64,000 nt of DNA from a virus: the IMG/VR virus record IMGVR_UViG_3300045988_130724, positions 1-64,000 of that record, one strand, 5' to 3'. Positions 3,661 to 48,657 of the stretch are shown piece by piece. Below the pieces are notes generated by a model that saw only the letters and a list, made by a program, of their open reading frames with translations, was not told the DNA's origin and searched no databases. Numbering within the stretch: position 1 is the first letter of the stretch; each line of letters starts with the position of its first letter. The position numbers and the translations under genes are program-made.

Positions 3661-3701
3661 AGCCTTAATTTAAAAAGAGGGGCGTTTCACCCCTCCTGTT
3701 A

Positions 3702-4555: not shown

Positions 4556-4624
4556 GATTGTTTGATTTTAAAGGAGTGTGGCTATTCCCATTTTGGAAAT
4601 CACCACAAAACTCCATGTTAATTA

Positions 4625-7877: not shown

Positions 7878-8983
7878 TGTCCAATTATATTAGTTAATAC
7901 GTAATCAATTAATTCTTGCTCTGTGAATCCGTCTGCCTCTGTTGGTATGGAGTCAAAGGCGATGGAGTTATAAAAAGCGATTCTAGAAAAATAGCCAGAA
8001 CTATGATGTTCGTTAGCAAAAAAAACAGGCTTTGTAGTATTGGTAGAATCGACTGTACCATTCACAATTGTAATAGTATGTTTAACATTGAATAATTCTT
8101 GGCAGTAAATAGACTTATTCAACATGCCATCTATATAAGTTACACCACTAGGGTTTATGTTATTATATGCAATTGAATTAATCTTAACATAAACCCAAAA
8201 CGGGCTGTTCATACCACTTTGAGCATAATATGCCTTACCAACGTTATCCCCTATCGGATTAACCGTCATAAACAGCATCTTCACTCCACTACTCAGATTC
8301 TCTACCAATCCGTAATCATCTACACCATCTGTCACTAATGCACCGGGATATTCGGGTATCTGAGTAATGGTGATGTCTGTGGAGTAGGGTTGGTCAGCAA
8401 CTAAAGTGATATATCTATAATTAGGACTTGGCGAGTCTGTAATATCGAATGCAACTTGATTATCGCCATTATGTAATTCAATTTTCAAATCATATTGAGT
8501 GTTGAATTGCTTTACGTATACTTTATTGCCTTCCTTTATCCCTTCTACATGCCAATTAACATGCAATATATTCCCATTATAATTTTGCACATAATAAAAG
8601 CCAAACCCTGTACCGTTTGAATTAGACAGTTTACCTCTTACATATCTGTCGTGTATTGTTTCAAATTCAATACCTTTATCTTGATTAAAAGGTATATTCT
8701 TATATCCATCTATACCCGACATGCCATTGAACAAGAAGTTGTTTAGTTTCATTCTCCTTCCTTTACCCGACAAGTCCTGCAAGTAAGCAGACTCCTTCAA
8801 TGTTTCGTTGGTCGCACCTTGCTTCTTTACGTCATAGTAGAAAACGATATGCTCCCTTATCCATTGAGGGATAGGGGAAGGCTTGGAACCACCGCCACCC
8901 GAACGGATTTCGCCAATGTGATTCAGTGCGATTGTATTCAACCGCACCGAATTTAAAGATATTGTGTTAACCTTCATAATCAC
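7874..8983 (-). CDS. hypothetical virion or receptor-binding-type protein (possible LamG/jelly-roll)
   Basis: 369 aa. 'LQDLSGKGRRMKLNNFLFNGMSGIDG' resembles LamG-type 'DLSGNGN..L.N' motifs. It is in an operon with its neighbours. Confidence 0.4.
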   Translation of the reverse strand: MIMKVNTISLNSVRLNTIALNHIGEIRSGGGGSKPSPIPQWIREHIVFYYDVKKQGATNETLKESAYLQDLSGKGRRMKLNNFLFNGMSGIDGYKNIPFNQDKGIEFETIHDRYVRGKLSNSNGTGFGFYYVQNYNGNILHVNWHVEGIKEGNKVYVKQFNTQYDLKIELHNGDNQVAFDITDSPSPNYRYITLVADQPYSTDITITQIPEYPGALVTDGVDDYGLVENLSSGVKMLFMTVNPIGDNVGKAYYAQSGMNSPFWVYVKINSIAYNNINPSGVTYIDGMLNKSIYCQELFNVKHTITIVNGTVDSTNTTKPVFFANEHHSSGYFSRIAFYNSIAFDSIPTEADGFTEQELIDYVLTNIIGQ

Positions 8984-9261
8984 TCCAAAATTAATGCCTT
9001 GACAGGCTTAACATTGCACTGAATCTTGATATGCTGCTTACCAATAACACCTTCGATGTTCTTCTGCCAAACCGACCCGACACCGTAATCGACTTCAAAC
9101 GCCACCCAACTCTCACCGTCCAAACTCTGATACAATACCACCTTGGACGGATGTGTATCGAATACCAATTGCAAACCAAATGTAGACGCAGCAGGCTGAA
9201 ACTTATACTCCTGATTGGAGCCGGATGCTGCAAAATTGCCGGTTATATCCTTTAATGCCAT
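8980..9261 (-). CDS. hypothetical small beta-rich protein
   Basis: 93-aa ORF between the endolysin gene and the 369-aa protein gene, with a 4-nt overlap downstream. Confidence 0.5.
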   Translation of the reverse strand: MALKDITGNFAASGSNQEYKFQPAASTFGLQLVFDTHPSKVVLYQSLDGESWVAFEVDYGVGSVWQKNIEGVIGKQHIKIQCNVKPVKALILE

Positions 9262-9272
9262 AATTGTAGATT

Positions 9273-9671
9273 TTATAAACTTAATACCTGTTTCCGATTC
9301 TTACCATCTGCCCTAAAGCTTACATGTACCCATGCGAAGTTGCTCTCATCAATCAACTGGTCATAAGGCAGGTTCTTGCGGATATACTCAAACAACAACT
9401 TATTCTGCTGTCTGTCTCCCGTATCGATATCGGCTGCTTCACCCTTCATGTGCTGAGAAGACTTGCTTCCCTTGACGGCTTCATTCAGCTCCGGGCAGCG
9501 ATAACCGCTGTTTACTGTTATAGGCTTTCCCCACCATGTGCGTAATGGGTCCAGTACGTTATCCACCAAGGCAGTAAGAGCCGTTACATGCTCCTGTCTG
9601 CATCTGTTGTTGATACCCAAGCGGTCGGCAGTCGTGGACTTGCACAGCTCCGCAATTGTAAAAAACTTCAT
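9273..9671 (-). CDS. endolysin, peptidase M15 (D-Ala-D-Ala carboxypeptidase-like Zn peptidase)
   Basis: 132 aa with 'NSGYRCPELN', 'SQHMKGEAADI' and 'WVHVS'. It overlaps the holin stop by 4 nt. Confidence 0.85.
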   Translation of the reverse strand: MKFFTIAELCKSTTADRLGINNRCRQEHVTALTALVDNVLDPLRTWWGKPITVNSGYRCPELNEAVKGSKSSQHMKGEAADIDTGDRQQNKLLFEYIRKNLPYDQLIDESNFAWVHVSFRADGKNRKQVLSL

Positions 9672-10138
9672 TTCTTTTCCTCCTTAATTACTTCTTTAAT
9701 ATCTTCTTTGTCAACCTTTAATGTCTTGCCGAAAATCAGCCTGAACGCTTCGACAATATTCAGCTCGATTCCCTTTGGCTTAAGTATGTTGCTGATAATC
9801 GAGCACATTTCCAAAAAACACACCATCAGGCAGGAATACATATCGATGTCGTAACGGCTGCCCGATGCCTTGTTTATCATAACCACCATGAATACAAAGC
9901 TGAAATATGTAACCATCTTGCCCATGGTTCGCCTTACCGCCCGACTGAACCGGACCTGTTCGCCCATTATAATACTCTTTCTCAGCCCGCAGGCTAAATC
10001 ACATATAATCACGGCAGCAGACACTATCAGCCACGGAATCATGTGTTCTATACTCTCCTGGACGAATGCGGCAGCTATTCCTGCCAATCCTCCGGCTACG
10101 CTCTTATCGATGCCATCTCTAACTATTGCACTAATCAT
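9668..10138 (-). CDS. holin-family membrane protein
   Basis: 156 aa with several hydrophobic helices ('IPWLIVSAAVIICDLACGL', 'MVTYFSFVFMVVMI', 'LMVCFLEMCSIISNIL') and a charged C-terminal tail. It lies immediately upstream of the endolysin gene. Confidence 0.7.
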   Translation of the reverse strand: MISAIVRDGIDKSVAGGLAGIAAAFVQESIEHMIPWLIVSAAVIICDLACGLRKSIIMGEQVRFSRAVRRTMGKMVTYFSFVFMVVMINKASGSRYDIDMYSCLMVCFLEMCSIISNILKPKGIELNIVEAFRLIFGKTLKVDKEDIKEVIKEEKK

Positions 10139-10275: not shown

Positions 10276-13041
10276 CTACAATTCGTAAAGATTGAGATTT
10301 TTAGAAATACATTTTTTATTAAGGAACTCTATATAATCTCTACCTTTGTCAGAATCCTTGATATATGGCGTATAAAAATAAGGCTTGACATCATTAGCCC
10401 CCCTTAAATTATACCATGTTGTCATGTATGCTAATCTAACATCATATTGCATCAGTAACCTTAGATATAGTTGGTTGGTGTAAAAGTTGTCTCGTGATGC
10501 GAATTTATTGCCGGTCTCAGGTAAACACGGTATTTTATTTCTTAATTCCGCTGCAATCACAATTCGCCTTATTACAGGCAGAAAACTCTCTATTTTATTG
10601 CCAATATTGGGAGTTATATCTTCGCTCCAGTCAACAGAATCATTAAAATAGATATCCGAACCAACTACGTCCACATATTCATTGCCCGCATATCTTTCAA
10701 AAATGGAATCTTCACCGGATAACGGATTGACACTAGGGTTATATGCCCACAGCACATTAGTACACATTCCATTTATATGCCTAACCATTCTTCTCCAAAC
10801 TTCCTTATACTCTTCTGATGTACAGTTGTTCCACCACTTAGTCATACCGTAAGCGCATTCATGGAATGGCCTGAATATAATGGGAATTTTGTTACCTTCT
10901 TCATCGACAAGAAGGTTAAAAAAGTCTGAGGCTGATCTTAGAAAATCATCAAACCATTTTTTTGCGACACCTCCATCCTTCTCGTTAAGTATCTGATAAA
11001 AAGCATTCGGGTATGTGCTGTTGATATGGTCGTATGAACCGTCCCCATAAGGGTTGTTGGCATGGTAGCAAAATGTTATGACTCCTCCGATCTCTTTATA
11101 ATATTTTTTCACCAAAGAAATAAATGTAAGTTTGTAAAATTCGGCTAATTCATTTTCCCCGGAAAAATGAAAATTCAAATATTTGTTCAAATCCAAGGCC
11201 AATACATTACCGAACTTCCCTGCCATGTCATATATACCGCTGTTAAGCGACAAGTCTATTTCATCAGATGCTTTTTCCACCCACACATTATCAACCTTTT
11301 TAACATACAAAGGATTGGTTTCCTGATTAGCCCACGGTGTTCCATCATTTCTTATTCCGCAGGTAAAATCTTCTTCTTGCCCATACAGCACATTGTTTGT
11401 AAAGGCATTGCGTCTGAGGTTGTAATATAACGCAATAGTTTGCAATGATGCATTTTTGTTGCTGATGTACTGTTTGCAAAACTCTATCTTATCGTTTACG
11501 CTCTCTTGGGCTTGCAATTTATCTCTTACCGACAAGGCTTCACCGCTTCTGTTTATATTCTGAGATGTTATGTATGCGTATATGTAAGGACTGTTAGTTA
11601 TATCGTAACATGGCATCTTACAGTTTTTTTTGAAAGAATACATTCCATCTTTAATGCTATTTAAATCTAATAGAGCGTACCCGTACCCCCCTGCATCGGG
11701 ACCTCCACTATCCTCAACGAATTTAACGAGTGTTCTCTTACTGGCGGGTATCATCTCCCGTATAAATGATACTTGATTACCATCCTTATCTATGGCAAGC
11801 GAAATCGTATTGTCACTTATTTTTAAATACCTTAAACCGATGTTATCCTGCTCTGTCTTTCTGACGTAATAAAATTCCTTGATTATTTCACCAAGTAGGT
11901 AATCATTAAAGTATAAGCCTCCATTGATATCCTCATTCTGAATCTTATATGACAATTCGCGCATTTCTATGAATAGCTTATCATCCTGTGAAACCTGAGA
12001 ATCGTCAAAACCTACATAGACGGTAAGTGAGGCAATAGGCTTCTTATAATACAGGCAAACAGGTGTATCCAGCACGAATTGGAATGATTCGGTACTACCG
12101 TCGCTAAATCCTATTGTGTAGTACAAACCTGTGACAGGGATATTTTTTTTGCTACCTTGCGAATCTGCTATGTACATTAACAGTTTACTTGTGTTATCCA
12201 TTACATACGGCAATTGAAACGTTTTTTTAAAAAAGAAATAGCCACTTTCTTTTTGAATGGAATCAGAAATAACTGTCGAACCTTCTTTTATGATATCCAT
12301 TTCCTTAGACATTATTTCTTGCATATTAGATAACACTCTATTTTGGTCAAGAGCATATAAGTAAGGAGAATTCTTTATATTGTAAGCTGTTTTTTCAATT
12401 CTTGCTTTGGTTGCAAAATTGGAATTTTCCGGCAAGGCCGACCAGTTAACAACTAATTTGACAGTAATCTTTTCCTCGTTAATAGAGCCACTAAACTCAA
12501 GGTAGTTATCTTCTGCATAATTATTTGCAAAGAAATCTATAACGTTACCATCTTCATCGCATATTGCAACCTGCCAATACTTAATATCGGAATCGTTTTG
12601 AGCACTTGACGAACGTCTGATTTGTTTCACGAATAGTTTTTTTGTTGTTCCTTCAATGTAAAATTCTTTAATAAAAGAGGCATAAAACTTGTTTTCAACA
12701 AAAAACGGAACTTCCACAAAAAACCATTTTTGACGGTTGTTAAAACCTCCTCCTTGATACTCCCATGTTTCGATCTCCCCGGTCACTCCCACGAACGACA
12801 ACTTCAATCCATTTCTCCTAAGTCCTACGGGAACCTTATCTATGGCTGTTTCCAGCGTATATCTGTTACCGCCTTGGATATTATCGGCAGTAACACCGCC
12901 GGTCGGATAGACCACGGATACATTTATCTCGTTTATGAGCGCGTCTATCGAAGTACCTGTTCCGGGATGTTTAACTGCATCAGTGGTTGTAGCCGGGTAA
13001 ATGGTCTGACCACCTTGGGTGAGTTTGTGAATTTTAGCCAT
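10276..13041 (-). CDS. tail fibre / receptor-binding protein with a C-terminal GH26-like (clan GH-A) glycanase domain
   Basis: 921 aa. Fibre-type N-terminus 'QTIYPATTTDAVKH'. The C-terminal third carries 'FRPFHECAYGMTKWWN', 'YVDVVGSDIY' and 'LPETGN', resembling GH26 catalytic motifs. Confidence 0.65.
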   Translation of the reverse strand: MAKIHKLTQGGQTIYPATTTDAVKHPGTGTSIDALINEINVSVVYPTGGVTADNIQGGNRYTLETAIDKVPVGLRRNGLKLSFVGVTGEIETWEYQGGGFNNRQKWFFVEVPFFVENKFYASFIKEFYIEGTTKKLFVKQIRRSSSAQNDSDIKYWQVAICDEDGNVIDFFANNYAEDNYLEFSGSINEEKITVKLVVNWSALPENSNFATKARIEKTAYNIKNSPYLYALDQNRVLSNMQEIMSKEMDIIKEGSTVISDSIQKESGYFFFKKTFQLPYVMDNTSKLLMYIADSQGSKKNIPVTGLYYTIGFSDGSTESFQFVLDTPVCLYYKKPIASLTVYVGFDDSQVSQDDKLFIEMRELSYKIQNEDINGGLYFNDYLLGEIIKEFYYVRKTEQDNIGLRYLKISDNTISLAIDKDGNQVSFIREMIPASKRTLVKFVEDSGGPDAGGYGYALLDLNSIKDGMYSFKKNCKMPCYDITNSPYIYAYITSQNINRSGEALSVRDKLQAQESVNDKIEFCKQYISNKNASLQTIALYYNLRRNAFTNNVLYGQEEDFTCGIRNDGTPWANQETNPLYVKKVDNVWVEKASDEIDLSLNSGIYDMAGKFGNVLALDLNKYLNFHFSGENELAEFYKLTFISLVKKYYKEIGGVITFCYHANNPYGDGSYDHINSTYPNAFYQILNEKDGGVAKKWFDDFLRSASDFFNLLVDEEGNKIPIIFRPFHECAYGMTKWWNNCTSEEYKEVWRRMVRHINGMCTNVLWAYNPSVNPLSGEDSIFERYAGNEYVDVVGSDIYFNDSVDWSEDITPNIGNKIESFLPVIRRIVIAAELRNKIPCLPETGNKFASRDNFYTNQLYLRLLMQYDVRLAYMTTWYNLRGANDVKPYFYTPYIKDSDKGRDYIEFLNKKCISKNLNLYEL

Positions 13042-13129
13042 ATAATTTCTATTTATTATAGCTTAAGTTCCGCAAGAACTTAGGCTGCTGTTGTCTTATG
13101 TAATTATTCATTTTTCTTAAGATTAAAAA

Positions 13130-13342
13130 TTATATTGATGTCACATCGTCAATTTCCTCGGCAAGCAGATACTTCTTGTCAGCGTCTACTGTTTTCTGAT
13201 AAGGTGTTAAATCAGGTGCCACATATTTTTTTAATGCATCGGAAGATGTCCTTCCGTTTGTATTCCCTTCCTGAAAGGGTATGCTTTCCTTGCCGTTCAG
13301 TGTTGTCCGTTCGGCAAGCTCGTTAATCGTTTTTCCTGCCAT
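13130..13342 (-). CDS. short fibre-N-terminus-like protein
   Basis: 70 aa. 'INELAERTTLNGKESIPFQEG...SSDALKKYV' is typical of phage fibre or adaptor N-termini. Confidence 0.45.
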   Translation of the reverse strand: MAGKTINELAERTTLNGKESIPFQEGNTNGRTSSDALKKYVAPDLTPYQKTVDADKKYLLAEEIDDVTSI

Positions 13343-13353
13343 AATTATTTGTT

Positions 13354-13887
13354 TTACATTATAAACATTCTGCCAATCTCCGCCAATACGGTGATGCCAT
13401 TAACCTTGATTTCCCCGTCTTCATTTTTCCCGATTGCAAACTCCTTATCCGTAGGGATAACTTCCGCAATGGAAACCAAATCATCCTCTGTGAGTGCCCT
13501 TTCGCTGACTGTATAGTCATTGTCTGCCGAAGCGCATTCTCTTGCCTCTTCAAACTCGCGCATCAATGTTTTTTTCATATCAACATAAGAGAGGTATTCC
13601 TCACTCTGCTTAATCGACTCAAGCTCTTGTTTTTCTTCGTTGCTTATGTTTCCTTTCTTCTCCAATTCATTCACTCGTGGGAAGGCTTGGGCGTCATATC
13701 CTTCGGGCTTCAGCTTGGCATAGATACCGCGCATATCCTCGTTAAAGCTCTCCATTGCCTTTTCGTAGGCTACCAAATTCAAGATAATCTTCACCTTCGT
13801 TTTATTGGCAAGCGGCTCGCCCTCATCCGATTTCAGAGGCACGAGTTGCAAAAAACTCATTTTTTTGATGATTTCGTTGATTTTCAT
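13354..13887 (-). CDS. acidic hypothetical protein (tail-region accessory)
   Basis: 177-aa ORF, tightly packed within the tail operon. Confidence 0.5.
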   Translation of the reverse strand: MKINEIIKKMSFLQLVPLKSDEGEPLANKTKVKIILNLVAYEKAMESFNEDMRGIYAKLKPEGYDAQAFPRVNELEKKGNISNEEKQELESIKQSEEYLSYVDMKKTLMREFEEARECASADNDYTVSERALTEDDLVSIAEVIPTDKEFAIGKNEDGEIKVNGITVLAEIGRMFIM

Positions 13888-26077: not shown

Positions 26078-27202
26078 ATGGATTTTAAGGATCAAGTTAC
26101 ACAGCTATCTGATAATATAAAAAAACAAAAAGACAAGATAGCTACAGAAGAAGCTACAAAAAACGCATTTATAATGCCAATGATTGCAGCCTTAGGATAC
26201 GATGTTTTTAACCCTTTTGAGGTCGTGCCTGAAATGGATTGTGACTTAATAAAGAAAAAAGGAGAAAAAATCGATTATGCCATAATGAAGAATGAAAATC
26301 CTATACTTCTTATAGAATGCAAACACTGCAAGCAAGACCTAAACCTGCATGACACCCAACTACAAAAATATTTTGTAGCGTCAAAAGCGCGTTTTGGCGT
26401 GCTTACAAATGGAATAGAGTATAGATTTTACACCGACCTGGAGAAAATAAACATAATGGATGAGAAACCGTTTCTTGTCGTGAACATGCTTGACTTATCA
26501 GATGCGGATATAGAGCAACTAAAGAAATTCCATAAGTCATATTACAATGAAGAGGATGTTCTAAGTACGGCAAACGAATTGAAATACACGACAGAAATAA
26601 AATCAATATTGAATAACGAATTTGCATCACCTACAGCAGAATTTGTTCGGTTCTTTGCACGTCAAGTCTACACTTCAGGGCAAATCACATCAAAGGTGAT
26701 AGATATGTTTACCCCACTCGTTAAGAAATCTATCACATCTGTTATTAATGATATTATTTCTGATAGACTAAATACAGCTATAAAAAACAGCGAGCAAACA
26801 TCTGACTCACTCCCAACGATAGACAATACATCCATAAATACTTCCACAGAAGATACAGAAGAGAAACTCCCGGGCGGAGTTGTATACATGGATAAAGAAT
26901 CCGGTGTCGTAACAACACAAGAGGAATTAGATGCCTACAACATCGTAAGAAGCATTTTAAGAAAAAGTGTGGATGTGGCTCGCATAACCTATAAAGACTA
27001 TAAAAGCTACTTCGTTGTAAATATTGATAACAGCCAATGGTACTGGATATGCCGTATTTCTATCGGAGCAAGAAAAAAGCAAATAGGAATACCGGCAGAC
27101 CAATATAAGAGTTGTGAATGGATTCAGATAGACAACGCGGATGATATATTCAAATATGCAGACAGACTTGAAGAAGCATTAAAATTAGCAATGGGGGAAT
27201 AA
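26078..27202 (+). CDS. PD-(D/E)xK nuclease-fold protein, type I restriction HsdR-N-terminal-domain-like, with an uncharacterised C-terminal domain
   Basis: 374 aa. 'IDYAIMKNENPILLIECKH' (D...ExK) and 'FGVLTNGIEYRFY' resemble the HsdR_N family. It is on the strand opposite to the tail genes. Confidence 0.55.
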   Translation: MDFKDQVTQLSDNIKKQKDKIATEEATKNAFIMPMIAALGYDVFNPFEVVPEMDCDLIKKKGEKIDYAIMKNENPILLIECKHCKQDLNLHDTQLQKYFVASKARFGVLTNGIEYRFYTDLEKINIMDEKPFLVVNMLDLSDADIEQLKKFHKSYYNEEDVLSTANELKYTTEIKSILNNEFASPTAEFVRFFARQVYTSGQITSKVIDMFTPLVKKSITSVINDIISDRLNTAIKNSEQTSDSLPTIDNTSINTSTEDTEEKLPGGVVYMDKESGVVTTQEELDAYNIVRSILRKSVDVARITYKDYKSYFVVNIDNSQWYWICRISIGARKKQIGIPADQYKSCEWIQIDNADDIFKYADRLEEALKLAMGE

Positions 27203-27220
27203 TTATTAAAAGCGTACATT

Positions 27221-27925
27221 ATGAAAAGAATTTTATTTTTTATGGCAATGTTGCCTATGTTTTTTTTAACAGCTTGTTCAGATGACAATGAAATACAAAA
27301 AGATGGAGAGACAGGAAATGGAAATCCGCCTTTATCTTCCATTGTTGGAACTTGGGAAAGTGGAAATTATTTTGTTTCATTTGGAGAAGATGAATTTTAT
27401 TCCGCATATATAGCAGATGAATTTATTGACAGTGGAGACTATAAACAAACAGAAAACGAGGTTACATGTTCAAATAATTACTTTAATAGAAAAACAGTCT
27501 ATACTATTAAAAACATATCTAAGACAGAGATGAAGGTGCAAGTTTCATATACCGACCTGTATGGAAAAACTAATAGCAAAGACATGACTTTTACAAAGTC
27601 AAATGAAACCATAGTATCAAAAAGCAACACGTTGGCAGGTAAATCCATTACATCATATTCTTCTTACTTTGGAAATGTTACAAGAACATTTAATTCCTTT
27701 AATGCTGGGGTAAAATCAGCAACAAAAGGTAGTGCCGCAAAATATCCTTTAAATTTTTTCTATATCTATATCGGAAATAAAATGTATCATCAAGTTCTAA
27801 GAAACAACTCAATTCAAGTTCCTAGTATTGGAGGTTGGTCAACAAACTACAATGAGGTGATATGCTGGGAATTGCATTTCTCTGCCAATGGTTCTATAGA
27901 TAGTTTCGATAAAATCGAAATATAA
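27221..27925 (+). CDS. lipoprotein (lipocalin-like?)
   Basis: 234 aa. Signal peptide with lipobox 'MLPMFFLTAC'. 'GTWESGNYFVSFGEDEF' is typical of Bacteroides lipocalin-like lipoproteins. Confidence 0.7.
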   Translation: MKRILFFMAMLPMFFLTACSDDNEIQKDGETGNGNPPLSSIVGTWESGNYFVSFGEDEFYSAYIADEFIDSGDYKQTENEVTCSNNYFNRKTVYTIKNISKTEMKVQVSYTDLYGKTNSKDMTFTKSNETIVSKSNTLAGKSITSYSSYFGNVTRTFNSFNAGVKSATKGSAAKYPLNFFYIYIGNKMYHQVLRNNSIQVPSIGGWSTNYNEVICWELHFSANGSIDSFDKIEI

Positions 27926-28767: not shown

Positions 28768-28983
28768 AACAGTTCTTGTTTTTTTTAATTAATGCCGGAT
28801 ATCTTCACAGACAACCGGCATGAAAAGACATATGAACAACAAATCAAATTCTCAAAATCGAGCGGAAACACAGATTCGGACTGTGACCTCATATCTGGTT
28901 GATATGTGTGCATCCATTACACCATTTCCGCAAAACACGTGAGTACAAAGCCCCCACGCTTGGCATTACCTATCAAAAACTTA

Positions 28984-41279: not shown

Positions 41280-42791
41280 CTACAAAAAATCTTTGAGCAG
41301 CTCTTCATCGCTAATAAAGCTGTAATCCCTAGGATAGAATGTATTCGCTAATGCATCCATATAGTCAGGAGAACGCTTGATACGTTTTTTTATGTCTTCT
41401 TTAGCCTCAATGATAACCTTTCCATTACTGAGAAACTTCCATTTAGTTTCAGTCGCTTCTTCCATTAACTGGTCACATGGAGGTAAAGCTGCACCAAATC
41501 CATTTTTAGGATTGAGCCAGTCGCGCAAAGCCCAATACAAATATGCGCGCATATTGGCAAATTCATATTCTCCGGTAATATCATGCAACCCATCCGCACC
41601 TTCTGAATATTTACATGAAAAAGCATTTGTAAATTTTTCCTCCAATAAGCGGGAATAAACACCTGCCCCCTCTCCTATCGTATCAACAAATGCTTTTGCC
41701 CCTTTCTTCTTTAGGTAGGGAATCATCATACCTACCACGTGCATGTGGTCCGCACGTCCGGCAGATTGATGCACCTCAAACTGCGGCACATAATTACCAT
41801 ATCGGAGACAAAGCACGCTATTATCGCGTCCCATACCGGCCACGTCAACACCTAACTTACAAGATTTGGCTGGAATAAAACCGTTTGCTTGTAATTCTTG
41901 CCAATTCCTGTTTGCTATCTCTATCCATTCATAAGGTATAAGTACATCTTCAGAAACTTTCGGGAACATACCAAGTACCTTAACTCGAAATAAATCATTA
42001 GGTCTGTATAGTTTACCTTCCCAATTGAAATCGCCTTCTCCCTCATTGAAATCTGTTTTTTGAATGGGAGAACACCAATTTATTACCTTGTCTTTTACCC
42101 ATTCATAATCCACTTGACCGGGTATTACTATTTGCTTCTTTACTACATTTTCTGCATTTAGAGAGCTAAGCCTGAATTTCGCAAAACGGTCAGACTTCAT
42201 GGCACGAGCTGCGTAACCGGTAGTAACATTAGGATTGAACACTATGAGAAAGCGGGAATTACCCTGTAAGTTACCTTCAATAGCGTTGTATGTCGCTTCT
42301 GATATACCGGAAGCTTCAGTAACAACAAACATGGTATTTACAGCATGGAAACCGGACCATGCTTCTGTGTTGTCATCACCAGCTTTGAACCCCGTTAGAA
42401 ACCACTCTTCGTAATCTGTTTTAATTCCGGAAGACAGTAGACGTCCGGGCAAGAACCCTGCATTTCTAAATAAACGAGATATTTCAGGTATCATTATATT
42501 TTGAACCTGACGAGCTGTAGGAGCTGTCATAGCAATCTTGGTATTCTTAACTAACTTACCTTCTTTCCAACGTGGAGTAAGATACATAAAGCACATAGAT
42601 GCACAAGCTGCAATGTAATCTTTCCCACGAGCTGTGCCCGATGCTACAGCAGTCATTGGATTATGCTGAACGGATTGAAGAATAGCTTGTTGCTCTCTGT
42701 CTAGCCTTGAATGAAGAACATCATGAGCAAACTTGCACCAATCCTCTCGCCATGCTTTCATGTATCGTATAGACTTTTCATCTTTGCTCAT
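41280..42791 (-). CDS. terL: terminase large subunit
   Basis: 503 aa. Walker-A-like 'VASGTARGKD'. It has a 4-nt overlap with the terS-like gene. Confidence 0.85.
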   Translation of the reverse strand: MSKDEKSIRYMKAWREDWCKFAHDVLHSRLDREQQAILQSVQHNPMTAVASGTARGKDYIAACASMCFMYLTPRWKEGKLVKNTKIAMTAPTARQVQNIMIPEISRLFRNAGFLPGRLLSSGIKTDYEEWFLTGFKAGDDNTEAWSGFHAVNTMFVVTEASGISEATYNAIEGNLQGNSRFLIVFNPNVTTGYAARAMKSDRFAKFRLSSLNAENVVKKQIVIPGQVDYEWVKDKVINWCSPIQKTDFNEGEGDFNWEGKLYRPNDLFRVKVLGMFPKVSEDVLIPYEWIEIANRNWQELQANGFIPAKSCKLGVDVAGMGRDNSVLCLRYGNYVPQFEVHQSAGRADHMHVVGMMIPYLKKKGAKAFVDTIGEGAGVYSRLLEEKFTNAFSCKYSEGADGLHDITGEYEFANMRAYLYWALRDWLNPKNGFGAALPPCDQLMEEATETKWKFLSNGKVIIEAKEDIKKRIKRSPDYMDALANTFYPRDYSFISDEELLKDFL

Positions 42792-43153
42792 TCGTCATCG
42801 TCCGGCAATTCCTGCATCAATTTTTCAAACTGATTCACATTCACATCCTGCTCCACTTTTTCAACATAACCTCTATGCTTCATTTTGGTCTTGCTTAGCC
42901 AAATAAGCATAGTATTATCTTGTTCCGTCAGAGCTTTGGCAAACATTGTCGTTTCTAGCTTATCATAGAAACTTTCTTCTACTTCTTTCCATTTTTCGGC
43001 AAAATCTGGATCATTCGCTTTCCATTTATAAGCGATTGAGCGTGATATTTCCACAGCCTCACAAGCTGCGGTAACATTCAACATCCTTGCGTCCAAAGCT
43101 TTTAAGAATTTCGCTTTCTTTTGCCTTGTATTAAGCCTGTACTTCTGTGCCAT
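42788..43153 (-). CDS. terS: terminase small subunit (HTH)
   Basis: 'MAQKYRLNTRQKKAKFL...VTAACEAVEISRSIAYKWK'. An alternative upstream ATG lies at 43174. Confidence 0.6.
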   Translation of the reverse strand: MAQKYRLNTRQKKAKFLKALDARMLNVTAACEAVEISRSIAYKWKANDPDFAEKWKEVEESFYDKLETTMFAKALTEQDNTMLIWLSKTKMKHRGYVEKVEQDVNVNQFEKLMQELPDDDE

Positions 43154-43841
43154 CTTTATTTCCCTCCAATACATTGTTTACGATTTCCAACATTTTACAA
43201 ATACTCAAAGCTTGAGCCTTGATTTTATACTTGGCTTGCACTTTAGCTGATACTTCATTCAACCGGTGCATTGTATCCATATCCACCAAAGTTAGATTAC
43301 CAAGCTCTTTTTCTGAATAACATTCCAACGTTTCCATGAGTTTATCAAACGAAACCTTCTGCGTATCAACAAACATAAGAGTTACAGGAACGATTTCGTT
43401 ATTCGGCATTTCAACCGTATAGTTGATATCCTTTACACTTTCCAGAACTTCATTGCTGATATGCGCATACTCTTTCAGTGCGACATCTGTTATTTCATCA
43501 AGCAATTGCTTCAGAATCTCCGCATCGTCCTGCCCAACTATACTGTTATGTGACAATTGTGTTGCCAGCAACCAATCGTTTGTAGTTTCCTCTTCATCTA
43601 TGTACATAACATGGATGGAAGTAAGCCCAGCCATTTTTGCCGCTTGCGTCCGGTGATTACCACTCACCACCGTATAAGAGCCATCCGAATGCCTTACACA
43701 AAACGGTACGGACGACAATTGACCGTCCCTACGAATATTATTTACCAAGGCATTAAACGTGTCCTGTTGCATGAAATGCGCATTTTTCTTGACCAGCTTA
43801 ATGTCTGATAACTGTACTTCCGCTATCTTGAATTTTCCCAT
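43131..43841 (-). CDS. ParB N-terminal-domain (ParB-like nuclease/CTPase fold) protein
   Basis: 236 aa. 'VQLSDIKLVKKNAHFM' and 'YTVVSGNHRTQAAKMAG' fit the ParB/Srx motif. Confidence 0.7.
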   Translation of the reverse strand: MGKFKIAEVQLSDIKLVKKNAHFMQQDTFNALVNNIRRDGQLSSVPFCVRHSDGSYTVVSGNHRTQAAKMAGLTSIHVMYIDEEETTNDWLLATQLSHNSIVGQDDAEILKQLLDEITDVALKEYAHISNEVLESVKDINYTVEMPNNEIVPVTLMFVDTQKVSFDKLMETLECYSEKELGNLTLVDMDTMHRLNEVSAKVQAKYKIKAQALSICKMLEIVNNVLEGNKDGTEVQA

Positions 43842-43844
43842 ACA

Positions 43845-45932
43845 TTACTCCTTTCTCGGCTCATCACCGTATTTTTTTACAAAAGCTTTTAAAATATCAT
43901 CCAATTTTCCACGAATACCCGCATCTTGTATGTAATGGAGTTTACCAACACAGCGTTCATGCAGTCTGAACACTCCCCGATACTTCATACTTACCGGTTT
44001 ATCGGTAAATACAGAAGTGGCAATCACCCCACATTCATGTTTATACCTTATACCCAACTCTGATTTAAATTCTGATGAAAGAACGCCCATTATTAGTAAT
44101 CGGCTTAACTTAGGCAGAGGGTGGTCTATGACAAAATCCGATTTCATCCAAACTGCATCCATGCCGTATTTGCTGACCTTCAGGAAGTCAAACATACAAG
44201 CTCCGAACACGTAATCATCCAAGAACCACAAATAACAGAACGGAGCTGATCCGAGTATGATGCCTTTCTTCAAGTAAATCATGCGCAGATAATCAATTTC
44301 TGCCATAGAAGCACGAACAAACCGGAGTTTGCTATTATTTGTAAGTACGTAATCGTCTGGCAACCGTTTATATTTTAGAGGGATGATAGTTCGCTTGTTA
44401 AAACTGCTGTCTCCACTTTCTACCACATTAGACCAAATATATGTGCGTTGGTCTTTGAATACCTCTCTTCTGCCCATAAATCCATGCTGCGAGAGAGCCA
44501 TGTAATTAACTTGTTCTTCATCTATTTCTGCATATTTCGTTTTAGTTCGTTCTTGAGATCCAAAATCATCCAATAAGAAACGCTGTAATGCGTTGCTTGT
44601 GGCTTTCATACCGGAATGAAATTCATTCTGATAGATTAATATGTCATTCTCTTTGCAGTTAAGAATTGCATCTGATATATCAGCACAATAAAATACTTCA
44701 ATAGACTTACTTTTAAGGCTGTCTACGAGCTTTTGGTAACGTTCCGTATACTTTTTATGGTAATGCTCCAATTTTGCCATAAAATCGTCATAAAGCGACT
44801 TATGGTAAATATCTTGTGAGTTCTTATGCTTCTTGATGGCATTGAACAGATGGATAGTGGCAATAATTTCAGCCGGACTTTCAGACTTGATATTCAGAAA
44901 CTCATATTCATCATTAAAACGCAGTTCTTTTATCTCTCCCTTGATTGCTTTATACATCATGTAGATAAAATACTCCTTTGTATACACCTTAATCTCACGG
45001 TTGGTAAGTATTTGCTCTATATCCATATAGTATGAGTTTACCACATGGGCTACATCAAACTTGGCCGCTTCTTTCTTGATGAAAGAAAGCATACGATTTG
45101 ACTTCTTGAACATGGAACCCACTATCGTAACATTATCCGAATGTTCTGCCGCCCAAAGCAACGGTTTGTGCCTTTGGGGAACTTTAGAATAATCAATATG
45201 GAACGCTTCAATACATTTATCAATTGTAGTGAGTTGCTTATATTCCTCCATGTCTTCATGTAGATAGGCATACTCCACGAATGAATACATGAATTTGATT
45301 GTTTCCAGAATTTTATCGAAATCCCAGGAGCTATTGAAGATCCTAAACTCTGCCGTTCCTATCTTTTCAATAGAACATAAATTAAGCCAGTACCGGATGT
45401 GTCCTCTATCTGAACCATTGCTAAAAACTTTCAGTAGATTTTCAATAGTATCTGCTTCCAATACACGCTTCACTACATCCCAAGGAGGGCTTGGTACGAG
45501 ATATTTTGTTTCCCACCACTCCGCAATATCGAATATCCGTTTGATTGGATATGCAGTATAATAAGAGAGAACAAACATACGCTTGATAACATTTAAGTCC
45601 ATGTCCTTGATGTACAGATGCGCATCAAAGCCTTCATTCCACATAAGATAGCTCCCTGCATCTTTCATGGTCTGAATAAACTCCTTCATTTCTTGTAAAT
45701 CTTCTGCGCAATAATGGTACGGTCGAGTATTTATCTCACCGCCAAACTGGCCGTGATGTGTAACTGCTGAACCGTCTGAGTTATTCATCATGGTCAGCTT
45801 GTTATCCGTCCACTTGTAACCTGATGGAAGTGGTATGCGTTGTTTGTCACCATCCGCAAACTCTAGTTCCATACCAAATGTTCGATTGGATATGTAGCCT
45901 ATCCACCTTTTATCTATATTCATGTTCTGCAT
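43845..45932 (-). CDS. amidoligase (glutamine-synthetase-like COOH-NH2 ligase, Amidoligase_2-type) fused to a large uncharacterised C-terminal region
   Basis: 695 aa. The N-terminal ~230 aa carry 'FGMELEF', 'GGEINTRP', 'GFDAHLYI' and 'GTAEFRIFNSS'. The last ~170 aa ('FGACMFDF...KLSRLLIMG...TSVFTDKPVSMKYRGVF') weakly resemble Mom/GNAT-like acyltransferases. Confidence 0.65.
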   Translation of the reverse strand: MQNMNIDKRWIGYISNRTFGMELEFADGDKQRIPLPSGYKWTDNKLTMMNNSDGSAVTHHGQFGGEINTRPYHYCAEDLQEMKEFIQTMKDAGSYLMWNEGFDAHLYIKDMDLNVIKRMFVLSYYTAYPIKRIFDIAEWWETKYLVPSPPWDVVKRVLEADTIENLLKVFSNGSDRGHIRYWLNLCSIEKIGTAEFRIFNSSWDFDKILETIKFMYSFVEYAYLHEDMEEYKQLTTIDKCIEAFHIDYSKVPQRHKPLLWAAEHSDNVTIVGSMFKKSNRMLSFIKKEAAKFDVAHVVNSYYMDIEQILTNREIKVYTKEYFIYMMYKAIKGEIKELRFNDEYEFLNIKSESPAEIIATIHLFNAIKKHKNSQDIYHKSLYDDFMAKLEHYHKKYTERYQKLVDSLKSKSIEVFYCADISDAILNCKENDILIYQNEFHSGMKATSNALQRFLLDDFGSQERTKTKYAEIDEEQVNYMALSQHGFMGRREVFKDQRTYIWSNVVESGDSSFNKRTIIPLKYKRLPDDYVLTNNSKLRFVRASMAEIDYLRMIYLKKGIILGSAPFCYLWFLDDYVFGACMFDFLKVSKYGMDAVWMKSDFVIDHPLPKLSRLLIMGVLSSEFKSELGIRYKHECGVIATSVFTDKPVSMKYRGVFRLHERCVGKLHYIQDAGIRGKLDDILKAFVKKYGDEPRKE

Positions 45933-46788
45933 ATCTCAACTTGACTAATGATTTATAATTGGGAACAAACGTAACCACATCACCAATGCAATAATTTGAG
46001 ACATAGTCACACTCCATAATTGAGTATTCACTAGAACTATCTACAAACTTCAAATTGGTACAATCACTAATTTGACACTTATCTAAGTCTACCATTGAAT
46101 AGCCACAATCCAAAATCAATTGATTACGTTCTGGGTAAATACCTATAATCCTTGTTTCGATTTCTATACCATTAAGACCCTTTCTCACCTCATAATTACA
46201 ATATGGGATTGTGCCAAACAACATATATTCACCAATACGAACATCACTTATGAAACTAGGCAGTTTACTATTTTGCCCAAGCCAAAAACTACCTCCCAAG
46301 CTGATAGACTCAATATCATTACGCAGGAGATTCCAGATACGGAACAGTTCTTTTTCCGAAGGGTGATTTTCATTCAGACAACCGGAAGTAATCAAACCAT
46401 ATATATGGGAGCTTGAAAGTGTCCTTATTTCATTGGCCAACTTACTTGCTTCATAAATGCTTAAGCCTTCTCTATTATCACATGCATTAATCGGAATATA
46501 AAAATTATGTATTCCTTGGCACGCATTTCCATTGATAGTAAGATATTTCCAAACATCCGCAAATGATGTAACCACAGCGCCGCTATTCCCCTTTACTGCC
46601 TTTCCGATAGAATAGCATATACTGTCTTTTAAATGGAGTCCAAAAATCTTATTTCTTATTTTATCCGATATATGCTCATAAATATCTTCATAAAAATCCT
46701 TGAACATTAACGAAATAGGAACATTAACAAGTGTTCGGGATTTCTCGATATTCTCAATGATATTTTTGGTATAAACTATAACTTTCAT
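45910..46788 (-). CDS. alanine-racemase-fold, predicted amino-acid racemase-like (COG3457/YhfX-like) protein
   Basis: Motif series 'GKAVKGNSG', 'CDNREGL', 'ISLGGSFWL', 'DVRIGEYMLFG', 'DSSSEYSIMEC', 'IGDVVTFVPNYKSL'. The start is set at the ATG at 46788 (ATGA coupling). The track start at 46797 is a GTG. Confidence 0.55.
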   Translation of the reverse strand: MKVIVYTKNIIENIEKSRTLVNVPISLMFKDFYEDIYEHISDKIRNKIFGLHLKDSICYSIGKAVKGNSGAVVTSFADVWKYLTINGNACQGIHNFYIPINACDNREGLSIYEASKLANEIRTLSSSHIYGLITSGCLNENHPSEKELFRIWNLLRNDIESISLGGSFWLGQNSKLPSFISDVRIGEYMLFGTIPYCNYEVRKGLNGIEIETRIIGIYPERNQLILDCGYSMVDLDKCQISDCTNLKFVDSSSEYSIMECDYVSNYCIGDVVTFVPNYKSLVKLRYAEHEYR

Positions 46789-47714
46789 AGCTCCCACTTT
46801 AAGATTAGACGTTCAATCCCTTTGTATTTGATATCTCTTTTGAATGAGAACCCTGCATTGATGAAGCTCTTCATGCTTGCCTCATTCTTGGGTGATGTCA
46901 TAGCAAATATCTCTTGTACACCATTAGAAACCAATTTTGCTATATTTGCATTAATAAGTATATACTGGAATCCGTTACCCCTATAATCAGCATGAACAAA
47001 ACATTTATCCACGTAGGCAGTACCATATTCAGTAAAGTACGTAAGAGAATAGGCAACCAGCTTGTCATTTACCAGTAACCCGAAACTGCAACCGGATTGC
47101 AGGCATTTCACTATATCTTCCTTTTCAGAAGGAAAACACATATCAGGATTAACAAAAAGAGTTTGCTCCATTTTTTCAATATCGGATGTATCAGATATAG
47201 ACAATACTTTCACTTGTATCTTATACTCAATATTTCCTTTTTTTACTGGAAACAATGGTTCGTAACGGTCAATCCATGCTTTAGATAGGAATGTGTCTAT
47301 GTCAGTTTTAGGCAACAATGCTTTTCTGTAACTGTCAAAGATGCCCAATACAAACTCTTTATGTTTGGTAAGTTGTTCATTCTTCAACGGACACTTACCA
47401 CTACGAAAGACAAAACTTTTCTTTACCGATTTTACCCACAAGGGGTAAGTACGACACATGATAGGCTTATAACCATTGTCACATGACTTACAGTCTCTGG
47501 CGAAACATTTTGCCTTTTTACCGCCAAAATAATCATCGTCTATAATCTGCAAATGGGAGATTTCTTCTTGGTGCCCATCAAGTTCATGGGGCAATATTAC
47601 AATATGCCCGTCCGACCCGAACGAACAACATTTCCAACCGCAACCGGAGTTTTCACATGCTCTTATTAGTCCTTTTTCGTCCATATATTTGGTTGTATAT
47701 AACTTCATATACAT
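46785..47714 (-). CDS. YkgJ-type Cys-cluster domain fused to a GNAT acyltransferase
   Basis: 309 aa. N-terminal 'CENSGCGWKCCSF' and 'KPIMCRTYPLW'. C-terminal GNAT motif A 'HADYRGNGFQYIL' and 'SMKSFINAGF'. Confidence 0.7.
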   Translation of the reverse strand: MYMKLYTTKYMDEKGLIRACENSGCGWKCCSFGSDGHIVILPHELDGHQEEISHLQIIDDDYFGGKKAKCFARDCKSCDNGYKPIMCRTYPLWVKSVKKSFVFRSGKCPLKNEQLTKHKEFVLGIFDSYRKALLPKTDIDTFLSKAWIDRYEPLFPVKKGNIEYKIQVKVLSISDTSDIEKMEQTLFVNPDMCFPSEKEDIVKCLQSGCSFGLLVNDKLVAYSLTYFTEYGTAYVDKCFVHADYRGNGFQYILINANIAKLVSNGVQEIFAMTSPKNEASMKSFINAGFSFKRDIKYKGIERLILKWEL

Positions 47715-47908
47715 TTTGCGTTAAATGCCTGCCGAGCGTATTCCCGACAGGCTTAACACAAAATTCAATCATCTATAAGTCACTCACAAGAACACCTATG
47801 CAATCTATTCGGCTTCTTTACAGTCGTGTCAGATGGCAATTACCATCACCCCGTAAACTGCACAAGCTTTTATGTTCTTGCTTCTGCTTATCGCTACTAT
47901 AAGGGTTG

Positions 47909-47978
47909 AGCGGAAACAGGGAGTCGACCCCCACTCTTTGGCTGGAATGCCAACGCTCTACCGATGAGCTATTTCCGC
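47909..47978 (-). tRNA. tRNA-Gly(UCC)-like gene with non-canonical architecture (possibly non-proteinogenic or a pseudo-tRNA)
   Basis: - strand sequence: GCGGAAA-TA-GCTC-ATCGGTA-GAGC-G-TTGGC-ATTCCA-GCCAA-AGAG-TGGGG-GTCGACT-CCCTG-TTTCCGC-T. The acceptor and D stems are perfect. The anticodon loop has only 6 nt, the variable loop has 4 nt, position 54 is G, and no CCA is encoded. Confidence 0.5.
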
Positions 47979-48183: not shown

Positions 48184-48588
48184 TTAGAACAAACTTGCTT
48201 GTTCGTACTTAGGTTCTTTCTTCTCAACTACTCCAAATTCTGTTATCTCAATGCCAGTCTTTTCAGTAAGCCACTTTGCCAAAATATGCCGATGGCAGAA
48301 ATCACCTGGTTTTTCATAACAGCAGAGAGCAACATCTTTACCTTCACTGTGTCGTTGGATAGTTTGAATCAATTCTTGCGGATTGACTTTTGCAAGAACA
48401 TCATTCAAATACATACTCGTGTACTCTTCATAAGTCCATTTATCATCCAACATGTATCTTCTTGGTGCAACCTCTATGATCTGAGGTGCATTATAAAATC
48501 TTGGCCTCCCTAACGCAACACATATCATTTTTACGTTTGCAGCTGCTAGTTTTCTGTAATTCCCGAAATAACTTGTATAAATCCTCAT
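48184..48588 (-). CDS. DUF488-family protein
   Basis: 'MRIYTSYFGN' and 'CCYEKPGDFCHRHILAKWL'. The start is set at the ATG at 48588; the track start is 48639. Confidence 0.65.
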   Translation of the reverse strand: MRIYTSYFGNYRKLAAANVKMICVALGRPRFYNAPQIIEVAPRRYMLDDKWTYEEYTSMYLNDVLAKVNPQELIQTIQRHSEGKDVALCCYEKPGDFCHRHILAKWLTEKTGIEITEFGVVEKKEPKYEQASLF

Positions 48589-48657
48589 TGCTTTATTTTT
48601 ATGGTGTAAAGATACTAAATATGGCGTAAAAAGCGCCACATTTAGTCATAAATTTAT

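Follow-up and report, generated by a model that had tools for sequence, protein, structure and literature searches.

Four minus-strand genes lie directly upstream of the terminase genes terS and terL in a 64,000-nucleotide stretch of viral DNA, positions 1 to 64,000 of the IMG/VR record IMGVR_UViG_3300045988_130724 (hereafter the window; its numbering is used below unless another locus is named). The block may constitute a DNA hypermodification operon in which, by analogy with the Mom protein of phage Mu, glycine would be transferred from a tRNA to DNA adenine before packaging and the adduct would then be tailored by further enzymes; we put the chances of this at about even. An earlier note on this DNA had suggested an amino-acid-conjugating hypermodification system beside the packaging genes, and that general idea fits the evidence given here. 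Of the four targets it offered (phage DNA bases, a nucleotide precursor, a cell-wall precursor or a virion protein), phage DNA is the best supported, by a Dam/DpnM-like domain in the central enzyme and by the match of the locus to known 'ParB-terminase' loci. A link between the enzyme family and a tRNA-like gene that had been taken as a boundary of the block holds across phyla, and this gene is probably a functional part of the module. The features concerned are listed here, with lengths in amino acids (aa).

48184..48639, minus strand: gene for a DUF488-N3a protein (likely start M18, at 48588; Pfam E 4e-10)
47908..47978, minus strand: tRNA-Gly-like RNA (Rfam tRNA, 47 bits)
46785..47714, minus strand: gene for a Cys-rich domain and a small GNAT (probable start 47684)
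45910..46788, minus strand: gene for a predicted fold-type III pyridoxal phosphate (PLP) enzyme, 292 aa (open reading frame 45910..46797, ATG at 46788)
43845..45932, minus strand: gene for the 695-aa three-domain protein
45168..45932, minus strand: its amidoligase (glutamine-synthetase-like) domain, aa 1-255 (Pfam Amidoligase_2, PF12224)
44433..45155, minus strand: its Dam/DpnM-like Rossmann domain with helical insert, aa ~260-500 (Foldseek, Pfam)
43845..44420, minus strand: its GNAT-phage-like domain, aa ~505-695 (PF22559)
43131..43841, minus strand: gene for a ParB N-terminal-domain protein (GNHR box; ParB_N, phrog_7405)
42788..43174, minus strand: terS, small terminase subunit (phrog_4044, E 1e-12)
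41280..42791, minus strand: terL, large terminase subunit (phrog_2, E 2e-27)
28860..28931, minus strand: second tRNA-Gly-like RNA, outside the module (covariance model 56.4 bits, E 1.7e-8)

All four open reading frames (ORFs) of the block were found where the earlier note had placed them, and every motif it quoted was present in the translations. The overlapping stop and start codons it described occur at the junctions of the small GNAT and PLP genes (4-nt overlap, ATGA, via the ATG at 46788, which is probably the start of the PLP gene), of the PLP gene and the gene for the 695-aa protein (23 nt shared), of the ParB gene and terS (44 nt shared) and of terS and terL (4 nt shared), but not between the 695-aa and ParB genes, which are separated by a gap of 3 nt. 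Most homologues of the first gene are 299 aa long, so its start is probably 47684 and not 47714. The four genes are real, tightly packed and conserved, and their arrangement is far beyond chance; the gene order recurs in relatives down to 30% identity.

The 695-aa protein was modelled with AlphaFold2 (AF2) at a pLDDT of 86.9. Its N-terminal amidoligase domain, recognised earlier from motifs, was upheld by Pfam Amidoligase_2 (35.2 bits against a cut-off of 22, E 1.5e-8, residues 62-218) and by structural matches in BFVD, which are predicted structures of many phage amidoligases. An alignment of 23 sequences with identities down to 28% shows no change at residues E22, E24, E66, N68, R70, H105, R180, E195 and R197; these acidic, His and Arg residues presumably map to the glutamine synthetase active site. 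The catalytic residues thus appear intact and ATP-dependent amide-bond formation is predicted. Beyond this domain the earlier note had overlooked a Dam/DpnM-like fold at residues ~260-500 that lacks the methylase motifs. Foldseek matched the model of this region to E. coli Dam and to DpnM (4rtm, 2g1p, 2ore, 2dpm; TM-score, TMt, 0.37-0.44), and Pfam DAM-like-phage1 (PF22555) reached E 1e-5 and 25.4 bits, just below its cut-off of 27; the corresponding domain of relatives scored 288 bits (9e-86) with PF22555 and 416 bits (1e-125) with PF22556. In the window clade the FxGxG of motif I is replaced by HVVNSYY and the D/N/S-P-P-Y/F/W of motif IV by IYQNEF; two-domain relatives have VGCSGNF, SNDVS and FPPTY, and the catalytic D/N/S of motif IV is missing. 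As modelled, the middle ~240 residues are a degenerate DNA-adenine-methylase fold. The C-terminal domain matched PF22559 GNAT-phage-like with E 3.5e-25 and 89.1 bits (cut-off 27) and, in Foldseek, many GNATs with probability 1.0 and TMt 0.48-0.56. Across 81 diverse relatives no change is seen in its SDF, LSKL and SMKYRG motifs, and the polar residues S598-D599, S648, K650, Y651 and R652 are invariant in very distant ones. Sequence searches of the Protein Data Bank (PDB) with the 695-aa protein, alone and as a profile, gave nothing useful.

The loss of the canonical methylase motifs, together with the position of the genes immediately upstream of terS and terL, would also fit a catalytically dead Dam-like-GNAT protein that serves with ParB as a DNA-recognition or packaging-initiation accessory, the other genes being unrelated morons. 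This is highly improbable: even very distant relatives keep the polar GNAT residues unchanged, the same constancy holds for the amidoligase catalytic residues, and two different extended versions each show strict co-inheritance of the enzyme genes.

A profile of the 695-aa protein matched 1380 cluster representatives at E<=0.001, about 25 of them with three domains and many others, by their listed lengths, two-domain proteins of ~430-460 aa (Dam-like and GNAT); about 600 matches to this Dam-like-GNAT enzyme family were found in IMG/VR. Gene linkage was followed in 80 diverse two-domain IMG/VR loci and, for the window clade, in a separate set of 80 IMG/VR relatives. A ParB-like gene lies directly downstream of the enzyme gene in 76/80 two-domain loci, and a DUF488 gene was found near it in at least 46 of the 80 (single-sequence phmmer). 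The amidoligase, the PLP enzyme, the small GNAT and the Cys-rich domain were found in none of these 80 loci. The widespread core is thus DUF488, tRNA-Gly or tRNA-Gly-like RNA, the fused Dam-like and GNAT domains and the ParB-like protein; its extension by an amidoligase domain, PLP enzyme and small GNAT is specific to a clade. The four genes that had been proposed as the functional unit must accordingly be redrawn around this conserved core, and the DUF488 gene, previously left out, belongs to the module: it is directly upstream in every three-domain locus whose flank reaches that far, and the protein is a conserved module member. Searching PDB sequences with the DUF488 protein yielded nothing useful. 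The ParB assignment held, with ParB_N (PF02195) at 29.0 bits against a cut-off of 26.3 (E 1e-6), the GNHR box within SGNHRTQAA, and phrog_7405 at E 2e-56, a specific subfamily that co-occurs with the Dam-like-GNAT enzyme; the protein is 36% identical to gp91 of mycobacteriophage Taptic.

The survey of relatives that the earlier note had called for showed the block genes linked throughout the window clade, down to 30% identity. The order DUF488, tRNAs where present, small GNAT, PLP enzyme, 695-aa-type protein, ParB, terS, terL was seen in every adequately flanked locus of the 80 relatives, and over the same range of identity the amidoligase fusion occurs together with the PLP enzyme and small GNAT. 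In a second three-domain clade (Prevotella, Bacteroidaceae and a Clostridia metagenome-assembled genome) an opine dehydrogenase replaces the PLP enzyme and GNAT. This clade, and a Capnocytophaga locus with neither, led us to reject a 'perfect' co-inheritance of the amidoligase with the PLP enzyme and GNAT. The latter locus (L362, Capnocytophaga catalasegens, 2989..5016) has its amidoligase part (2989-3375) and its Dam-like-GNAT part (3379-5016) in separate ORFs, with DUF488 directly upstream and without PLP enzyme, small GNAT or opine dehydrogenase; it may represent a variant that has been split or has decayed. In the 72%-identity clade (L007/L008), where no tRNA-Gly-like gene was found within +-7 kb, an RtcB RNA ligase and two small ORFs lie between the three-domain gene and the ParB gene (8057..9805), as they also do in L078-L086.

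Among cultured phages, the Gordonia phages Sting, Soos, Jollymon and Clawz encode the enzyme, annotated as 'DNA methyltransferase' or hypothetical, followed by ParB, and the family is also encoded by Cluster W mycobacteriophages and by Faecalibacterium phage FP_Brigit. Overall, carriers comprise prophages of Bacteroidota, Proteobacteria, Firmicutes, Leptospira and Methanobacterium as well as phages infecting Actinobacteria. Six loci (L153, L159, L162, L166, L169 and L170) have terL and flanks near-identical to those of the window, yet the module they carry is of the two-domain type and their terS differs; within one phage lineage, modules are therefore swapped as cassettes. The window-type odd tRNA is retained in L159, L162 and L170, and in the first two it lies 224 nt upstream, with the same spacing as in the window.

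The RNA at 47908..47978 matched the Rfam tRNA family (RF00005) with 47 bits against a gathering cut-off of 29. Its anticodon stem, UUGGC/GCCAA, encloses a 6-nt loop, AUUCCA, and not a 7-nt loop, and ARAGORN reported the anticodon as '???'. G1:C72, C2:G71, G3:C70, U73 and C35-C36 are present; CCA is not encoded. The short loop of this window-type RNA is kept in ~65 related loci, in which stem changes are compensatory. Over the RNA class as a whole, G1:C72, C2:G71, G3:C70, U73 and the CC-A of the loop are near-invariant and the other stem pairs covary: 94% of cells were paired, 15/16 pairs were compensatory and 0/500 shuffles reached the observed values. Most members have a long stem and a 5-nt NNCCA loop, and many encode CCA. 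When these 5-nt loops are read as 7-nt loops they contain a C32:G38 pair, lack U33 and give 'anticodons' such as ACC. Some loci have a canonical tRNA-Gly(UCC/CCC) in place of the short-loop RNA. Bacterial glycyl-tRNA synthetase (GlyRS) recognises the identity set G1:C72, C2:G71, G3:C70, U73, C35 and C36. The positions kept in the class are those of this set, and the positions lost are those needed for decoding. Judged from these retained identity elements the RNA is probably still chargeable, and with its 6-nt anticodon loop it should be unfit for decoding, which would make it a dedicated glycyl carrier.

The second tRNA-Gly-like RNA of the window (28860..28931) has a 6-bp stem, the 5-nt loop AACCA, a GCGGAAA/UUUCCGC acceptor stem and U73. 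ARAGORN called it 'Gly(acc)', and Rfam at its gathering threshold does not list it. It stands among tail-region genes, beside a low-GC plus-strand island. In a relative at 85% identity (L009, 3900..4128), a split tRNA-like sequence was observed just downstream of the odd tRNA, with the 5' half GACATAGTGGCGAAATTGGTAGACGC and the 3' half GCAGGTTCGAATCCTGCCTATGTCA separated by ~180 nt; an intron or some other interruption of a tRNA could account for it.

The tRNA-like gene is specifically linked to the enzyme family across phyla. Unbiased ARAGORN predictions in the 80 two-domain loci gave 21 tRNAs, 14 of which were Gly-like; for unique sequences the binomial P of this enrichment is ~1e-9 at a 6% background. 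A covariance-model search found 33 Gly-like elements in 32/80 loci, all on the strand of the enzyme gene, 11 of them 15-27 nt upstream of it and 5 right after the ParB gene. Co-oriented tRNA-Gly-like RNAs were present in 29 of the 63 well-flanked two-domain loci. When genome assemblies were searched, 17/80 loci were positive, including 10 of ~15 three-domain prophages, with the tRNA heading the operon. In mycobacteriophage Taptic (Cluster W) the single tRNA, annotated as tRNA-Gly(tcc), abuts the enzyme gene, and a ParB-like gene follows the enzyme; one tRNA, a tRNA-Gly, is also what was described for the Taptic genome (PMC5356062). As a control, 120 IMG/VR loci with canonical tRNA-Gly genes were inspected and none encoded the enzyme (0/120); the results used from this control set were the co-occurrence count and the ARAGORN anticodon calls only. 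An attachment-site (attP) remnant was rejected as the origin of the tRNA: the cloverleaf is complete, the integrase lies 46 kb away, and in unrelated phages the tRNA abuts the enzyme gene in the same orientation.

Two further observations concern tRNA-Gly genes near the enzyme. Prevotella prophages carry apparently canonical tRNA-Gly genes in tandem (L297, 1727..1882, CCC and UCC; L302, 1730..1882, two UCC) directly upstream of the opine dehydrogenase and three-domain genes. In Gordonia phage Sting (L010, 5731..5802; PQ201089.1, ~12801..12872) a weak match to a tRNA-Gly-like RNA (18.5 bits, E 0.15) lies in an unannotated gap just upstream of gp28, the two-domain enzyme; its acceptor stem is GCGCGAC/GUCGCGC and it has U73.

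The working model is drawn by analogy with Mom, a GNAT that moves Gly from Gly-tRNAGly to N6 of adenine in double-stranded DNA and is selective for the tRNA-Gly body (PMC13219725, published in 2026). The operon would be expressed late, next to the terminase genes, and its catalytic core would be the C-terminal two-thirds of the 695-aa protein. The Dam/DpnM-derived domain, having lost the S-adenosylmethionine-binding and DPPY motifs, would bind DNA and present an adenine, and the fused GNAT domain, like Mom of Mu, would shift glycine from glycyl-tRNA onto the base. As donor the phage would provide its own tRNA-Gly-like RNA (47908..47978), a private glycyl carrier that probably supplies the module with glycine; phages without a linked tRNA could, like Mu, draw on the tRNA-Gly of the host. 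ParB may serve to load the enzyme onto DNA, or to position it there, ahead of packaging. The position of the locus matches that of ParB-terminase loci with Dam/DpnM-clade methylases, which fits a modification of phage DNA around packaging. DNA adenine as target, glycine on tRNA as donor, and the order and chemistry of tailoring are all inferred.

The DNA might be modified in another way, with the GNAT using an acyl-CoA or an acyl-phosphate made by the amidoligase and the neighbouring tRNA-Gly genes serving translation or anti-defence, so that their linkage would say nothing about the chemistry. In Foldseek the GNAT domain matches CoA-dependent N-acetyltransferases best, a linked tRNA is lacking in about half of the loci, and ordinary tRNAs hold the same spot in relatives of the window phage; the three-domain clades without a tRNA, moreover, have an ATP-dependent carboxylate-activating domain fused to the enzyme. 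The link is, however, specific for tRNA-Gly, crosses phyla, is co-oriented and often places the tRNA 15-27 nt from the enzyme gene; the linked tRNAs commonly have non-decoding loops with ACC 'anticodons', and control loci with canonical tRNA-Gly never carry the enzyme. The Q/RxxGxG/A loop for the CoA pyrophosphate was likewise not evident after beta4 of the GNAT domain, where SDF...PKLSKL is found instead; this argument is weak, because acetyl-CoA binding by Mom was reported in an earlier paper. Taken together, these points leave the acyl-donor explanation unlikely, and glycine transfer from tRNA is preferred.

The RNA itself might also be what is acted upon. The tRNA-Gly-like RNA or host tRNA-Gly would then be the substrate, either with an adenine such as A37 or A76 in the Dam-like pocket or through a TacT-like acylation of the aminoacyl group, and translation would be manipulated or a tRNA-targeting defence countered. 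GNAT toxins such as TacT do act on Gly-tRNAGly (cited in PMC13219725), the A after CC is invariant in the short loops, and RtcB RNA ligase is inserted inside the module in L007/L008. Against this stand the constant pairing of the enzyme with a ParB-like DNA-binding protein beside the terminase genes, the membership of its domain in a DNA adenine methylase clade found at the same locus in other phages, and the ~half of loci that have no tRNA-like gene. A tRNA substrate is therefore distinctly less probable, and DNA remains the preferred substrate of the Dam-like-GNAT enzyme.

In the window clade the glycyl adduct would be extended through its free alpha-amino group or its carboxylate. The amidoligase domain would form an amide bond using ATP, the PLP enzyme would act at the alpha-carbon (as a racemase or epimerase, or in the manner of an aldolase), and the small acetyl-CoA-type GNAT would N-acetylate the free amine of the adduct. 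As PLP enzyme, N-acetyltransferase and opine dehydrogenase all need a free alpha-amino group, they fit an aminoacyl (glycyl) adduct. The PLP protein had been described as following predicted amino-acid racemases. As modelled, it has the fold-type III architecture (TIM-barrel and beta-domain, alanine-racemase fold): it matched the NCBIfam Orr racemase with E 2e-7, and its AF2 model (pLDDT 90.5) gave Foldseek E values of 6e-13 to 1e-9 and TMq 0.70-0.75 to 3anv, 3wqc, 6qkb, 7yqa, 2dy3 and 4dza, i.e. D-Ser dehydratase, D-threo-3-hydroxyaspartate dehydratase, beta-hydroxyaspartate and D-Thr aldolases and Ala/Lys racemases. In an alignment of 25 sequences K30 (within SLMFKDFYE), R184 and Y278 are invariant; K30, read by position without residue-level superposition, is presumably the N-terminal Schiff-base lysine of racemases. 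The metal site of D-Ser dehydratase and D-Thr aldolase carries the motif PNHxC. The window protein has PNYKS, without the His/Cys of that site. The predicted Lys/Tyr pair is compatible with two-base racemisation, and aldolase or other chemistry is also possible. The alanine-racemase fold stands; since the structural matches have several activities and the metal site is absent, racemase is one of several possible activities, not an established one.

The first gene encodes an N-terminal domain with 8 conserved Cys fused to an acetyl-CoA-type GNAT (Acetyltransf_1, E 3e-7; RGNG motif). The GNAT half of the YkgJ-GNAT fusion proposed in the earlier note is thus borne out. For the Cys-rich half, PF03692 (CxxCxxCC/YkgJ) gave no match at E<=1 with the window protein and 18 homologues; its Cys align with those of a genuine PF03692 protein from L001 (CxxCGxxCC ... 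KPxxCRxYP pattern), and hhalign against the YkgJ family was weak (E 0.0037, probability 9%, 40 columns). As the domain is unmatched in Pfam and its likeness is at motif level only, filing it under YkgJ was dropped. Across clades this domain is fused, separate, displaced or absent. Among PDB sequences, weak fold-type III matches were the sole useful result for the two smaller enzymes.

The same enzymes could alternatively leave the DNA untouched and attach an amino acid or a peptide tag to a protein, whether the terminase, the portal, a virion protein or one from the host, or they could produce a small metabolite. A role of this type was predicted earlier for phage amidoligase systems, the amidoligase catalytic residues are intact, the structural neighbours of the fused GNAT domain are protein N-acetyltransferases, and the PLP enzyme, opine dehydrogenase and acetyltransferase have ordinary folds of amino-acid metabolism. 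The core enzyme, however, has a Dam/DpnM-like fold and pairs with ParB, and the amidoligase, PLP enzyme and small GNAT, occurring in 0/80 core loci, cannot define its function. We regard a protein or metabolite product as improbable, and the preferred reading remains a glycyl adduct on DNA that the extended clades enlarge. Extended to the whole family, it becomes a more tentative proposal, which we hold at somewhat less than even: many phages would encode a non-decoding tRNA-Gly mimic that carries glycine to a Dam-like-GNAT enzyme which, with ParB and DUF488, aminoacylates phage DNA ahead of packaging, and in Bacteroidota phages, of which this is one, different clades would build larger adducts, peptide-like with amidoligase, PLP enzyme and acetyltransferase, and opine-like with opine dehydrogenase. 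Either product would represent a new adenine hypermodification family.

Several points weigh against the preferred reading. Even with filters off, about half of the well-flanked two-domain loci are without a linked tRNA-Gly-like gene, and none was found within +-7 kb in the three-domain clades at 64-72% and 30% identity (L001, L005-8, L078-89). A tRNA as a universal component of the module was therefore rejected, and the tRNA link might be non-essential. Ordinary tRNAs (Phe, Ser, Cys) come and go at the spot of the odd tRNA in the window lineage, and the second tRNA-Gly-like copy at 28860..28931 is far from the module. That GlyRS charges a tRNA whose loop has 5-6 nt is a prediction, and the Dam-like domain is degenerate, so that it could have a role other than on DNA. 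The earlier note had likened the last ~170 residues of the 695-aa protein to Mom/GNAT-type acyltransferases. The GNAT fold was confirmed by PF22559 and Foldseek, but the likeness to Mom is at the fold level, with no sequence relationship: the best Foldseek matches are protein N-terminal acetyltransferases, and Mom (8bv8_B) ranks 13th with E 1.3e-3 and TMt 0.49, no better than Naa50/Naa60. A profile of 23 family members, searched against the PDB, which includes Mom (8bv8), gave no match at E<=10. Amidoligase_2 proteins are said to have been proposed by Iyer et al. in 2009 to act on peptides or proteins. Target, donor and product of the enzyme family have all been inferred.

Compared with Mom of Mu, the module has in common the GNAT fold, a phage gene expressed with or near the late genes, the linkage to tRNA-Gly genes, which matches the demonstrated donor of Mom, and a predicted adenine target. 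It differs in having no sequence similarity, in a fused Dam-like domain in place of the helix-turn-helix-like insertion of Mom, in its obligate ParB-like and frequent DUF488 partners, in that tRNA-Gly-like RNAs, often non-decoding, are encoded by many of the phages themselves whereas Mu relies on those of its host, and, in the window clade, in the addition of predicted amidoligase, PLP and acetyltransferase activities. ParB-terminase (Tls) linked DNA-modification loci of phages, including those with Dam/DpnM-clade methylases, have been described (Iyer/Aravind; PMC4738411). The present locus resembles them in the ParB gene by terS/terL, the Dam/DpnM-clade domain in the adjacent gene and the predicted action on phage DNA around packaging; unlike in those loci, FxGxG/DPPY are lost, a GNAT and here also an amidoligase are fused, and tRNA-Gly-like RNA and DUF488 are part of the locus. 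In the thymidine hypermodification of phages M6, ViI and PaMx11, PLP enzymes and a GNAT tailor base-tethered amino acids on DNA, and amidoligase genes of unassigned role co-occur in such clusters (PMC8989533). Shared with that system would be an amino acid that is appended to a base once replication is over and then tailored on DNA, by accessory enzymes that vary combinatorially between phages; in contrast, among the module genes we saw no deoxyuridine monophosphate (dUMP) hydroxymethylase, 5-hydroxymethyluracil (5-HMU) DNA kinase or aGPT-Pplase, a purine (adenine) is predicted as target, and the donor is proposed to be an aminoacyl-tRNA. The window protein resembles phage Amidoligase_2 (PF12224) proteins in its score above the cut-off and in its predicted structure; it differs in being fused to Dam-like and GNAT domains and, compared with some phages such as Mycobacterium phage Tesla, in having no glutamine amidotransferase partner beside the amidoligase. 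In the cell wall of Staphylococcus, Fem transferases use non-proteinogenic tRNA-Gly isoacceptors, which evade translation through T-arm changes that weaken EF-Tu binding, and their target is peptidoglycan. The proposal here is similar in its dedicated non-translational tRNA-Gly that donates to a GNAT-fold, aminoacyl-tRNA-dependent transferase, and different in that it is phage-encoded and that escape from translation would come from the shortened or U33-less anticodon loop.

The window belongs to a temperate siphovirus-like gut (pro)phage with an integrase (274..1524), an SPP1-type portal and a tape-measure protein. A megablast search of the block against 50,697 phage records gave no match, and the phage is without a close cultured relative. 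A 96%-identical protein found in the BFVD structural search is catalogued as 'Amidoligase enzyme [Siphoviridae sp. ct4Uy2]', and single genes of the block have close homologues in Parabacteroides and Paraprevotella genomes. Inside the minus-strand structural genes lies a plus-strand two-gene island (26078..27925, GC 0.33), the first protein of which has a nuclease-like domain of the type I restriction R-subunit N-terminal kind (HSDR_N); the island is probably a moron or defence cargo. Downstream of the gene for a 1903-aa tail-fibre-like protein with a Peptidase_S74 chaperone domain, a minus-strand gene (10276..13041) encodes a 921-aa protein in which a glycosyl hydrolase family 26 domain was recognised; it is probably a tail enzyme that degrades the receptor. 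In L009, at 13117..13830, Pfam matches to the Sequestin/Tad2-like anti-Thoeris sponge family were observed after the portal gene and a collagen-like gene.

The Pfam-catalogued domains, the ParB-terminase locus concept and the Mom mechanism are already known. The earlier note had not recognised the four-gene combination as a described system; our literature search found no description of it either, nor of the function of the enzyme family, its link to tRNA-Gly, the non-decoding tRNA-Gly class or the extended operons. Mom of phage Mu was the sole tRNA-dependent DNA-modifying enzyme found described in that search. If the proposal is correct, tRNA-dependent aminoacylation of DNA would be widespread and would be carried out by an enzyme architecture unrelated to Mom, and virus-encoded tRNAs, the purpose of which is often unclear, would gain a new role as private glycyl carriers that bypass the ribosome. 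The extended versions would predict new, larger adenine adducts, and such adducts would bear on the evasion of restriction and other DNA-targeting defences, on sequencing artefacts in gut viromes and on tools for site-directed derivatisation of DNA.

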